Positions 23,964 to 27,032 of a DNA stretch of 64,000 nt are shown here, one piece after another. Position 1 is the first letter of the stretch; every line of letters begins with the position of its first letter. The position numbers were made by a program, and so were the translations under genes. Under the pieces are notes generated by a model. That model did not search any database. It worked only from the letters and a program-made list of their open reading frames with translations, and was not told the DNA's origin. Source of the stretch: an uncultured Solirubrobacteraceae bacterium (GTDB lineage Bacteria > Actinomycetota > Thermoleophilia > Solirubrobacterales > Solirubrobacteraceae); contig CAVROM010000008.1 of assembly GCA_963722815.1 (NCBI GenBank), positions 21,235 to 85,234 of the forward strand, given 5' to 3'.

Positions 23964-24461
23964 ATGGACGACTCCCAGCGCCTCCACTGCATGATCGAGA
24001 TCCCCAAGGGGTCGCGCAACAAGTACGAGTGGGACCCGGACCTGCAGGCGATCAAGCTCAACCGCTTCCTGTTCTCGAGCGTCGTCTATCCCACCGACTA
24101 CGGGTTCATCACCGACACGCTCGGCGAGAGCGGCGAGGCGCTCGACGCGCTCGTGCTCACCGGAGCGCCCACCTTCCCCGGCTGCCTGATCGAGGTCCGC
24201 GCCGTCGGCGTACTGCGGATGGACGACGAGGAGGGCAAGGCCGACAAGGTCGTGTGCGTGCCCGCCGACGACCCGGCGTGGGACGAGGTCGAGGGCGTCG
24301 ACGGCCTCCCCGGTCAGCTGCGCACCGAGATCGAGCACTTCTACTCGATGTACAAGCAGCCGGAGGGCAAGGAGGTCGACGTCCACGGCTGGGAGGACCG
24401 CGATGTCGCGCTCGAGGCGGTCGACGCCGGCCTGAAGCGCTACGACGAGGACAGCTCGTAG
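23964..24461 (+). CDS. ppa: inorganic pyrophosphatase (family I)
   Basis: MIEIPKGSRNKYEWD, YPTDYGFI and DALDALVL motifs are present. An alternative start is ATG 23949. Confidence 0.92.
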   Translation: MDDSQRLHCMIEIPKGSRNKYEWDPDLQAIKLNRFLFSSVVYPTDYGFITDTLGESGEALDALVLTGAPTFPGCLIEVRAVGVLRMDDEEGKADKVVCVPADDPAWDEVEGVDGLPGQLRTEIEHFYSMYKQPEGKEVDVHGWEDRDVALEAVDAGLKRYDEDSS

Positions 24462-24472
24462 CGTCGGTCCCG

Positions 24473-26096
24473 CTGCTGTCGGCGCGCGGCGTCACGAAGT
24501 CCTTCGGCGGCCGCGAGATCCTCTCCGGCCTCGACCTGGAGCTCGCCGCCGGTGCCCGCATCGGCGTGCTCGGCCCCAACGGCGGCGGCAAGTCGACGCT
24601 GCTGCGCATCCTCGCCGGCGAGGAGCACCCGGACGCCGGGACGGTCACCAGCCGCCGCGGGCTGGTCATGGCCTCGCTCCCGCAGATCGTCGAGGGCGAC
24701 GGGCGGCCCGCGCTCGCCACCGTGCTCGACGCCCGCCCGGAGCTGACCGCGCTGGAGCGCGAGCTCGCCCAGGCCGAGAGCCGCATCGCCGACCCCGTCC
24801 TCGCCGGCGACATGCGCAAGCTCGAGCGCGCGCTCGCCAACCAGGAGCGGCTGCTCGGGCAGTGGTCGGAGCTCGGCGGCGAGCGCGCGGAGAGCGAGGC
24901 GCGCGCGCACCTGACCGCGCTCGGCCTCGACGACGATGCGCTCTCTCGCACCACGCGTGAGCTGAGCGGGGGCCAGCGCAAGCTCGTCGCGCTCGCTGCC
25001 TGCCTCGCGCGCCGCCCTGGGCTGCTGCTGCTCGACGAGCCCGAGGCGCACCTCGACATGAGCCGCCGCGATGCGCTCGAGCACCTGATCGACGACTTCG
25101 ACGGCGCCGTCCTCATGGTCTCCCACGACCGCCACCTGCTCGACGAGTGCGTCGACACCATCGCCGAACTCGACCGCGGGAAGGTCCGCATCTGGCCCGG
25201 CGCCTACTCCGCCTACACGGTCGCGCGCCGGCTCGAGCTCGAGCGCCAGCAGCAGCAGTGGGCTACCCAGCGCAAGGAGATCGCGCGGCTGGAGGAGGCG
25301 GTGCGGCGCTTCCGCCACTGGGCTCACATCACCGTCAACGAGCGCGCGGCCAAGCAGGCGCGCGTCAAGCAGATGCAGATCGACAAGATGGAGAAGATCG
25401 AGCGGCCGGTGCTCGAGCGGCGCAAGATGGCGCTCGAGCTGCGCAGCGCCGCGCGCGGCGGCCAGCGCGTGATCGCGCTCGAGCGGGCCGACTTCGCGTT
25501 CGGCGAGGACCCGGTGCTGCTCGACGTCGAGCTGGTCATCACGCGTGGCGAGCGCGTCGGCGTGGTCGGCCCGAACGGCGCCGGCAAGACCGTGCTGGCG
25601 CGCGTGCTGGCCGGCAGCCTCGAGCCGCGCAACGGCAGCCGCTGGGTCGGGCCGAGCATCGAGGTCGGCTACCTCTCCCAGGCGGCCGGCGACATGCCGG
25701 GCGAGCAGTCGGTGATCGACGCGCTGCGCGGCGGCCGCTCGCTGACCGAGGAGGCTGCGGTGCGGCTGTTGATGCGCTTCCTGTTCGACTACGAGCAGAT
25801 CCGGCGGCCGGTCGCGACGCTGAGCGGCGGCGAGCGCACTCGGCTCGCGTTCCTCGGGCTGATGGAGGACCGGCCCGAACTGCCTCGTGCTCGACGAGCC
25901 GACCAACCACCTCGACATCGACTCGATCGAGGTGCTCGAGGACGCGCTCGAGCGCTTCGACGGCACGGTGATCGCGGTCTCCCACGACCGCTACTTCCTC
26001 GACCGCATCGCCGACCGGATCGTGCTCGTCGCCGACGGCGAGGTCCGCTCGTTCGAGGGCGGCTGGTCGGCGAACGCCGACGTCCTGGCGGACTAG
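24473..26096 (+). pseudogene. ABC-F family ATPase (two ABC domains), one frame change; start codon unclear
   Basis: Walker A motifs GPNGGGKST and GPNGAGKT, and signatures LSGGQRK and LSGGERT, are present. The frame shifts at about 25877 (..LMEDRP | NCLVLDEPTNHLDIDS.. in ORF 25887..26096). The only in-frame starts near the N-terminus are CTG 24473 and 24476. Confidence 0.88.
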
Positions 26097-26737
26097 CCGG
26101 GAGGCTTCTGGCTCAGCGTCCGCTGCGCGTACTTGAGCGTGACGGTCGCCAGCGGATGCGCGCCGCCGCCGGTGCTCGCGAAGCCGGCGATCGCGACGGC
26201 GGTGAGGATGAGGCGCAGGCCCCCGCCGCCGGCGGTCGGGACGACGATCTCGACGTGCTTGTAGGGCTCGCCGCGCCGGAAGGCCCGTTCGAGGTCGTTG
26301 AGCCATCCGCCGTCCGGGAGCACGACGCTGATCTCGCCCGGCCCGCCGAACTCGTCGGGCTTCGGCGTCCGCGAGCCGCCGCCGGGATGCGGCGCGCCGA
26401 CGACGCCGAGGTTGACCGACTCGAGCGGCATGCCGGTCCCGTCGAAGAGGATCTGCTTCTCCCTCGGCCAGCCGCCGCCGCCCGCGGGCGCGGCGTGGGC
26501 GGCCTCGTGCGCGAGGCGGTCGAGCACCGCGCCGACGGCGCGATTGCCCGCGGTCTTCTGCAGTTCGAGCAGCCGCTCGTGCGGGCCGCCCGCGCCCGCG
26601 TGCTCGGCGCCGGCATGCCCGTCCTGCGTCTTCTCGTCCTCGGCCTGCGCCTTCTCCGCCTGCGGGTCCGGCCGCTCCAGCAGCCCTTCGAGATCGCCGT
26701 CGAACTCGAACCGGCTGCGCTTGCGCCGCCGGGCCAT
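26093..26737 (-). CDS. hypothetical protein: charged N-terminus with LLELQKTAGNRAV motif plus C-terminal Hcp-like beta-barrel candidate
   Basis: ATG 26737 overlaps the stop of the upstream small ORF (ATGA). There is no signal peptide. The C-terminal roughly 125 aa (GEISVVLPDGGWLNDLERAFRRGEPYKHVEIVV..LRLILTAVAIAGFASTGGGAHPLATVTLKYAQ) follow the residue pattern of T6SS Hcp. This is inference only. Confidence 0.6.
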   Translation of the reverse strand: MARRRKRSRFEFDGDLEGLLERPDPQAEKAQAEDEKTQDGHAGAEHAGAGGPHERLLELQKTAGNRAVGAVLDRLAHEAAHAAPAGGGGWPREKQILFDGTGMPLESVNLGVVGAPHPGGGSRTPKPDEFGGPGEISVVLPDGGWLNDLERAFRRGEPYKHVEIVVPTAGGGGLRLILTAVAIAGFASTGGGAHPLATVTLKYAQRTLSQKPPG

Positions 26738-27032
26738 CAGTCGCTGAACTCGAAGCGATAGGCGTTGCGCTGCTTCACGCACCGCCACTGGCCCGCGAGC
26801 GCGTTGCCGGACACGCGCTTGCAGCGGAAGCCGCCGGGCGTGCGGAAGCGGAAGCTGATCGAGTCGTGGTGACGGCGCAGGTCGCGCCGCGCGGTCTGCA
26901 GCGCATGTTGCGCGCCGAGGAGATCAGCAGGTTGAAGTCGGCCCGGGTGTGGCAGCTGCGCACCTTCGCGGGCGCCTCGGCCGGGACGAGGAGCAGGACC
27001 ACCGCCGTCACGAGGGCCACCGTCGTGCGCAT
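26737..27032 (-). pseudogene. small Sec-signal protein, one frame change
   Basis: ATG 27032: MRTTVALVTAVVLLLVPAEAPA is signal-like. The frame switches at about 26895 to ..LQTARRDLRRHHDSISFRFRTPGGFRCKRVSGNALAGQWRCVKQRNAYRFEFSD followed by the stop. Confidence 0.5.

Follow-up and report, generated by a model that had tools for sequence, protein, structure and literature searches.

We analysed a 64 kb stretch of DNA from a soil member of the Solirubrobacteraceae (phylum Actinomycetota), here called the window, and describe a minus-strand gene pair at 26093-27032. The second gene of the pair, gene 2, encodes a cytoplasmic protein of ~23 kDa that is built from three modules: a disordered N-terminus, an amphipathic leader helix and a divergent Hcp barrel. 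Type VI secretion in Gram-negative bacteria is considered to have Hcp as a hallmark, while the genome is of Gram-positive type, as an earlier sequence-only reading of the window had supposed and as its assignment to the Actinomycetota bears out. We hypothesize that gene 2 provides a leader-tagged Hcp ring and that a contractile injection system (CIS) whose genes lie elsewhere uses this ring as cargo or carrier, and we put the probability of this reading at about one half.

The Hcp fold of gene 2

Gene 2 (26093..26737, minus strand) encodes 214 amino acids, a call that rests on its open reading frame (ORF), on the G+C content at third codon positions (GC3) and on full-length homologues. Its N-terminus is polybasic and then acidic, the motif LLELQKTAGNRAV occupies residues 56-68 and a C-terminal domain of ~125 amino acids completes the protein, which confirms the layout proposed by the sequence-only reading. 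That reading had also compared the C-terminal region to Hcp. The comparison is supported by sequence profiles, by Pfam matches in relatives, by the AlphaFold2 (AF2) model and by Foldseek; searches with residues ~90-214 (26096..26470, minus strand) did find Hcp and CIS tube proteins, and we assign this segment to a beta-barrel domain of the T6SS_HCP superfamily.

In the AF2 model the predicted local distance difference test (pLDDT) of the domain is 87-93 per 10-residue block, except in the loop at 114-125, and the order of elements is strand-strand-helix-strand as in Hcp. All 50 matches listed by Foldseek against the Protein Data Bank (PDB) are either type VI secretion system (T6SS) Hcp entries or CIS tube entries (PVC, AFP, Streptomyces CIS). 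The best match is 1y12 (Hcp1) with an E-value of 1.4e-5, template modelling (TM) scores reach 0.76 when normalised to the target, and the CIS tubes (6j0n, 6rao, 9gts, 9qgl) rank lower. When the fold was searched against a viral library, the best named matches were tail tube proteins.

The three PDB sequences ranked highest by a profile of residues 86-214 are Hcp1 PA0085 (1y12), EvpC (3eaa) and an Hcp fusion (4ksr), with marginal E-values (0.05-0.4) and consistent alignments. The Pfam family T6SS_HCP matches 5 of 17 close family members (best E 1e-4), and two proteins of the same architecture, P0024 and P0063, score 37.9 and 33.1 bits against a gathering cut-off of 23.5. An exhaustive HMMER search of 1.84 billion representatives with the domain profile gave 80 matches, and canonical Hcp proteins are found among them at lower scores (P0075 and P0097, with T6SS_HCP E-values of 8e-33 and 1e-37). 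Phage_T4_gp19 had no match in any family member scanned. By transitive homology and predicted fold, the gene-2 domain is a divergent member of the Hcp superfamily.

The domain has the fold in common with T6SS Hcp (PF05638; P. aeruginosa Hcp1, 1y12), and the sequence homology is detectable. The conserved segments can be aligned, ...PLES.. with the IEv.SfswG strand, and further on the helix after hS..L and the ..L.L..V.I.S...SGGG...E.vtL.F strands. Gene 2 differs from T6SS Hcp in adding a ~85-residue N-terminal extension with a conserved leader and in its shortened first hairpin. In addition, its host is a monoderm actinobacterium and no TssB/C, TssK, TssM or VgrG gene lies nearby; T6SS core genes (TssB/C sheath, baseplate, TssM, VgrG) were found neither in the window nor in the neighbourhoods of the related loci L001, L002, L005 and L010. 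CIS and phage tail tube proteins (Phage_T4_gp19; Pvc1, Afp1, the Streptomyces CIS tube) share the superfamily fold, but by sequence gene 2 is closer to T6SS_HCP than to gp19-type tubes. Specialised Hcp proteins with an effector extension (Hcp-ET) carry a C-terminal toxin and are encoded in Gram-negative T6SS loci. They resemble gene 2 in having a further part covalently attached to an Hcp module, and differ from it in that the gene-2 extension is an N-terminal leader with no toxin attached.

Gene 2 belongs to a conserved family. A word-indexed search recovered 21 homologues, all metagenomic and without family annotation, at 94% to 36% identity over the full length; the gene-2 ORF is therefore conserved in related genomes. 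A genome scan places the family in metagenome-assembled genomes (MAGs) of Solirubrobacteraceae and in a few other Actinomycetota. Many of the relatives from the exhaustive search are proteins of 170-216 amino acids with the gene-2 architecture, and among the 80 representatives, taken from 50%-identity clusters, 33 or more have the leader, each of them behind the same N-terminal motif.

One relative bears on how the domain may assemble. P0068 (L137:308-3334) has the same leader, six tandem Hcp-like domains as read by eye (three stretches were scored in the profile search) and, at its C-terminus, a PG_binding_1 domain, so that it resembles an Hcp extended C-terminally by a domain of effector type. 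This design is the one expected of a single-chain Hcp pseudo-hexamer, and it would indirectly support ring formation. The exhaustive search also returned large tandem T6SS_HCP proteins, with six stretches each in P0032, P0038 and P0045 and ten in P0047 (6351 amino acids); the sixfold repeats of P0032 and P0038 would likewise be indirect support for a ring.

The leader and its association with injection systems

The leader core, residues 56-75 (LLELQKTAGNRAVGAVLDRL; 26513..26572, minus strand), is conserved more strongly than any other segment of the family. When 27 diverse members are aligned, the leader LxLQ(K/R)xAGNxAV is more conserved than the Hcp domain, and L59, Q60, G64, N65 and A67 are the only invariant columns besides the start Met. 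Residues 9-51 and 63-87 have pLDDT values below 50 in the AF2 model; the polybasic and then acidic N-terminal region is predicted to be disordered, consistent with a putative loading region. A twin-arginine translocation (Tat) signal in the RRRKR stretch was considered and rejected, as no hydrophobic segment stands behind it.

The leader is not confined to Hcp proteins and stands at the head of hundreds of polymorphic-toxin-like proteins that have little else in common. We sampled leader carriers in metagenome contigs with a DNA pattern encoding LQRxxGN(R/Q/H)AV and recovered 122 metagenomic proteins of 40-885 amino acids. The motif is located at a median of 38 amino acids from the predicted N-terminus and, in 85% of the proteins, between 25 and 70. 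The wider context phi-L-x-LQ(R/K)-x-AGN-x-AV-x-x-LL recurs in this set, and positions that the pattern does not impose are also kept: position -3 is hydrophobic, -2 is Leu, and +12 and +13 are Leu or hydrophobic, in agreement with LLELQKTAGNRAVGAVL of the window. A 43-residue leader profile compared to a set of 5.8 billion proteins returned short fragments only. Leader-motif proteins often stand in tandem arrays (L104:543-6919, and also L013, L052 and L076); the L104 array consists of four consecutive paralogues, each with an HExxH ~165-169 residues past the motif.

Pfam families were scanned in 104 of the motif proteins. Most have none, and the commonest family is eCIS_core (formerly DUF4157), found in 14 of the 104; the others include PG_binding_1 (4), OmpA (4), Aspzincin_M35 (2), T6SS_HCP (2), Peptidase_M15_4 (2), DUF6782 (2) and EndoU (1). 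A local hidden Markov model (HMM) of the Hcp-like domain is matched by 6 of the 122 proteins. The leader is thus a shared N-terminal module placed ahead of polymorphic, effector-like C-termini, with Hcp as one recurrent payload. DUF4157 is a core and highly specific marker of the loci and toxins of extracellular contractile injection systems (eCIS) (PMC8213781; PMC11297309).

Some leader genes have CIS genes in their neighbourhood. Among 134 neighbours from 17 longer leader loci, the recurrent families include AAA (3) and, with two members each, Phage_T4_gp19, Phage_sheath_1, the C-terminal domain of the sheath and eCIS_core. Sheath-tube pairs are present in L100 and L129, at distances of a few hundred bases to 3 kb from a leader protein, which in L100 carries a typical eCIS_core region. 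In L013, the one IMG/VR match, two tandem leader proteins directly follow a Phage_tail_X gene, and one of them has eCIS_core with an E-value of 3e-29. The leader is associated with eCIS_core and with CIS loci. L100, L129 and L013 have leader proteins at most about ten genes away from a CIS operon, and none of the leader-Hcp loci examined does. The sequence-only reading had taken the leader for a putative cargo signal; the association just described gives this view statistical support, but nothing in the window itself does.

The architecture of gene 2 can be compared to that of eCIS-associated toxins and cargo such as AlgoCIS Cgo1/Cgo2 and Tme of Streptomyces davawensis, which likewise have a disordered N-terminus followed by a structured payload. 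In AlgoCIS cargo, a disordered N-terminal region is required for loading into the tube lumen and DUF4157 is not required (preprint 10.64898/2026.05.27.728243). The N-terminal peptide of Tme quoted in PMC11126660 is polybasic, as is the extreme N-terminus of gene 2, and the gene-2 leader is common to eCIS_core proteins and to proteins adjoining CIS sheath and tube genes. Gene 2 differs from eCIS cargo in that it has neither eCIS_core nor a recognisable toxin domain, its payload has a tube-protein fold, and none of the loci examined has it close to a CIS operon. No eCIS_core match was found in gene 1, in gene 2 or in a second leader protein of the window (described below), and eCIS_core is not among the families listed for the window. 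The distant family members P0098, P0068, P0066 and P0024 are located on short contigs or in loci without CIS genes. Solirubrobacter soli DSM 22325 appears with an eCIS operon in a table of the supplement to PMC8213781, and the Solirubrobacteraceae therefore do contain such machines. Because no CIS gene was found near a leader-Hcp gene, we infer the partner machine in this organism.

The gene pair and its surroundings

The window has a G+C content of 73%. On the minus strand GC3 is 0.93-1.0 in the gene-2 frame from 26093 to ~26700; upstream the signal is in a second frame as far as ~26850 and in a third as far as 27032, both of which correspond to gene 1. The gene-1 stop TGA at 26739-26737 overlaps the gene-2 start ATG at 26737-26735 in an ATGA junction. 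Both genes are real, and the two-gene unit with its overlap at 26737 stands with its coordinates unchanged. Gene 2 ends with TAG at 26095-26093. It converges with an ABC-F gene on the plus strand, which also ends with TAG, and the two stops overlap in the palindrome CTAG at 26093-26096, leaving therefore no intergenic space or terminator between them.

The DNA of this region is 95% identical to that of an uncultured Solirubrobacteraceae MAG (L004), and the local synteny is kept: aminotransferase, methyltransferase, gene 1 and gene 2, followed by ABC-F in convergent orientation, pyrophosphatase and MscL. The recognisable genes of the window have housekeeping functions (among them aldehyde dehydrogenase, amylase, amidase, citrate synthase, transporters and a UvrD-type helicase).

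Gene 1 (26737..27032, minus strand; supported by GC3 and 229 homologues) encodes a small Sec-signal protein of 98 amino acids once repaired. It starts at 27032 with the signal peptide MRTTVALVTAVVLLLVPAEAPA; a lipoprotein signal was rejected, as no lipobox precedes Cys27. The family, of ~100 amino acids, is larger than the close family of gene 2, strongly conserved and widespread in Actinomycetota metagenomes, with four invariant Cys and an invariant C-terminus AYRFEFxD (AYRFEFSD in the window). Its AF2 model is confident, with a pLDDT of 87. A fold search of the PDB gave no match (best E 1.2), and gene 1 has no family in Pfam, PADLOC or PHROGs. In PADLOC and PHROGs, gene 2, the second leader protein and a 95-amino-acid ORF coupled to the latter likewise had no match, and a known defence-system or phage-protein identity is therefore unsupported.

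The sequence-only reading had described gene 1 as a protein of about 98 amino acids with a signal peptide and one frame change. This description is confirmed, and the frame change can be traced to a window-specific deletion of one nucleotide at ~26897, where relatives have TGCAAGACC and the window has TGCAGACC. Window-specific indels were judged by alignment with L004, L001 and L002. Gene 1 is intact, at 98-102 amino acids, in L001, L002, L004, L006, L007, L008 and L011, and is also frame-shifted in L003, an error-rich contig. About 1 kb away, a second indel found only in the window, an extra C at ~25873, splits the ABC-F reading frame between 24029-26761 and 25887-26096. The related genomes are long-read soil MAGs, and indels are seen in L001 and L003 too. 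An assembly error, rather than a pseudogene, is thus most likely, because gene 1 is intact in every good-quality relative and the window carries a second unique indel, and it is the simplest explanation given that the related genomes are long-read MAGs and other contigs of the set carry indels. A programmed frameshift was rejected because orthologues are read in a single frame and because of the unique indel in ABC-F.

The 9-mer TTCGAGTTC reported on both sides of the gene junction is real, with one copy at 26746-26754, but the other copy is located at 26702-26710 and not at 26704-26712. The window holds 3 copies compared to 0.26 expected. At the C-terminus of the gene-1 family RFEF is invariant; it is not kept in gene 2, where most relatives have KFHFEE or differ altogether. 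Since only the gene-1 copy is conserved, we rejected the idea that the RFEF/TTCGAGTTC repeat signals recoding or recombination, and we take the repeat to be incidental and without detectable meaning.

The ATGA overlap and the gene order are kept in L001, L002, L004, L006, L008 and L139, and gene 1 adjoins gene 2 also in L007 and L011. The gene-2 protein of L139 is only 39% identical to that of the window, yet the ATGA-coupled pair is kept. Gene-1 homologues stand beside unrelated genes, without an Hcp partner, in L134, L135 and L136, and leader-Hcp genes stand without gene 1 in L005, L009 and L010. The coupling to a small Sec-signal protein proposed by the sequence-only reading is therefore real and typical of this lineage but not obligatory. 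In three loci (L007, 8916-9545; L003, ~118; L011, 399-1011) a second leader-Hcp paralogue is located immediately upstream of gene 1, which gives the order leader-Hcp, small secreted gene, leader-Hcp.

A second leader-motif protein is encoded on the plus strand at 29222..30637, 2.5 kb from the gene pair, and is supported by the motif scan, start analysis and synteny (L001, L002 and L007). Its motif, IQRLQRAIGNRAVARLL, lies ~33 amino acids from the start, and it has a C-terminal region of ~430 amino acids containing HEFAHVLH, which makes it a candidate zinc-metallopeptidase-type effector; it has no Pfam, NCBIfam or PDB sequence match. It overlaps, as GTGA, an ORF of 95 amino acids (30634..30921, plus strand) that has a 100-amino-acid counterpart at the same place in L001. 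This ORF matches neither a family nor a PDB sequence. It sits where the immunity or partner gene of a toxin would be expected, and may have such a role.

Proposed mechanism and alternatives

We propose that the leader would serve as an address tag taking the gene-2 protein to a CIS encoded elsewhere in the genome, and that the Hcp domain would assemble into a hexameric ring. The ring could be delivered as cargo or, more attractively, could act as a carrier or chaperone for leader-bearing effectors, by analogy with T6SS Hcp and its small effectors. The HExxH protein 2.5 kb away would be one candidate effector. Gene 1 would stand apart from this as a small secreted protein with disulfide bonds, coupled in its translation to gene 2 within this lineage.

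Several observations weigh against this proposal. A scan of the window (25 of 86 Pfam families listed) showed no sheath, tube, baseplate or eCIS_core gene, and a local search with two sheath and three tube sequences found none in the window or in L001-L012; in the window, the local CIS search used two examples per CIS protein. No CIS gene is found within ~10 kb of the leader-Hcp gene in L001, L002, L005 and L010, and no leader-Hcp relative was found on IMG/VR contigs. Gene 2 sits in a block of housekeeping genes (aminotransferase, methyltransferase, ABC-F, pyrophosphatase, MscL), and only 3 of the sampled leader loci visibly adjoin CIS genes. If loading takes place from the cytoplasm, its coupling to a Sec-exported protein is unexpected. 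The assembled ring of an Hcp exceeds the lumen of a CIS tube in width, and to travel as cargo it would need to enter as a monomer or in unfolded form. Finally, the gene-2 protein of the window has no Pfam match even at E<=10 and no NCBIfam match; it falls below every Pfam threshold, and this is why its membership is called by transitive homology and fold.

Some of these observations fit another explanation, in which gene 2 is a stand-alone Hcp-like ring with a cellular role outside injection systems, such as a chaperone or a binder of nucleic acid or protein, and the leader is an oligomerisation or partner-binding helix shared with toxin families. The housekeeping synteny is stable across relatives down to 35% identity with no CIS genes nearby, and the link between leader and CIS is statistical, resting on eCIS_core in 14 of 104 proteins and on the three examined loci that adjoin CIS genes. 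We nevertheless consider this explanation unlikely. Where the partners of the leader can be recognised, they are most often eCIS_core and domains of effector type, and CIS hallmark families occur among the neighbours far above what we ourselves estimate would be expected from one ~20 kb locus per genome. Moreover, the window clusters two leader proteins, one of which has a toxin-like HExxH and a coupled small ORF.

Alternatively, gene 2 may be a structural tube subunit of an unrecognised T6SS-like or CIS-like apparatus of the Solirubrobacteraceae, with the N-terminal extension as an assembly or regulatory element instead of a cargo tag. The domain does belong to the Hcp/tail-tube superfamily, and the paralogues found side by side in L007, L003 and L011 recall tube and tube-initiator genes, which are often so placed. 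However, about ten loci have no sheath, baseplate or spike gene nearby, and six ~85-residue tails per ring would have to fit in a stacked tube. The leader also heads proteins that are not tubes (metallopeptidase-like, peptidoglycan-binding, OmpA and EndoU proteins), which fits a shared address tag and not an element peculiar to tubes, and we regard a tube subunit as improbable. A dedicated two-component secreted module, in which the gene-1 protein would be a receptor, immunity factor or partner of gene 2, is likewise improbable, since despite the ATGA-coupled order conserved in six loci and the adjacency in two more, each gene occurs without the other, gene 2 has no signal peptide, so that the products would be in different compartments, and gene 1 changes much more slowly (65-95% identity) than gene 2 (35-94%), so that the two are not co-evolving in step.

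The reading of gene 2 as a leader-tagged ring linked to a CIS can be extended. Leader-tagged Hcp rings may represent a previously unrecognised adaptor or carrier class for CIS in monoderm Actinomycetota, with the helix phi-L-x-LQ(K/R)-x-AGN-x-AV as a widespread, sequence-defined CIS loading signal common to Hcp rings (single-domain and single-chain hexamer) and polymorphic toxins. Taken as a whole this extension is unlikely, and we offer it speculatively. Such a widespread signal would contrast with the current view, in which loading sequences are not conserved between systems (preprint 10.64898/2026.05.27.728243).

Our literature search found no paper on a leader joined to an Hcp-family domain in Actinomycetota away from an injection-system locus. 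The Hcp fold and eCIS_core-associated toxins are known, and it is the combination of this fold with the leader, in Actinomycetota and remote from a CIS, that we have not found described and that appears to be new. In Solirubrobacteraceae and other Actinomycetota, proteins with such an Hcp-family domain make up a conserved family. If the leader is a loading tag, it would provide a sequence handle for CIS cargo encoded far from the CIS operon, for which current predictors lean heavily on proximity, and it would suggest that Hcp-type rings have been recruited as cargo or carriers by phage-tail-like systems outside T6SS.

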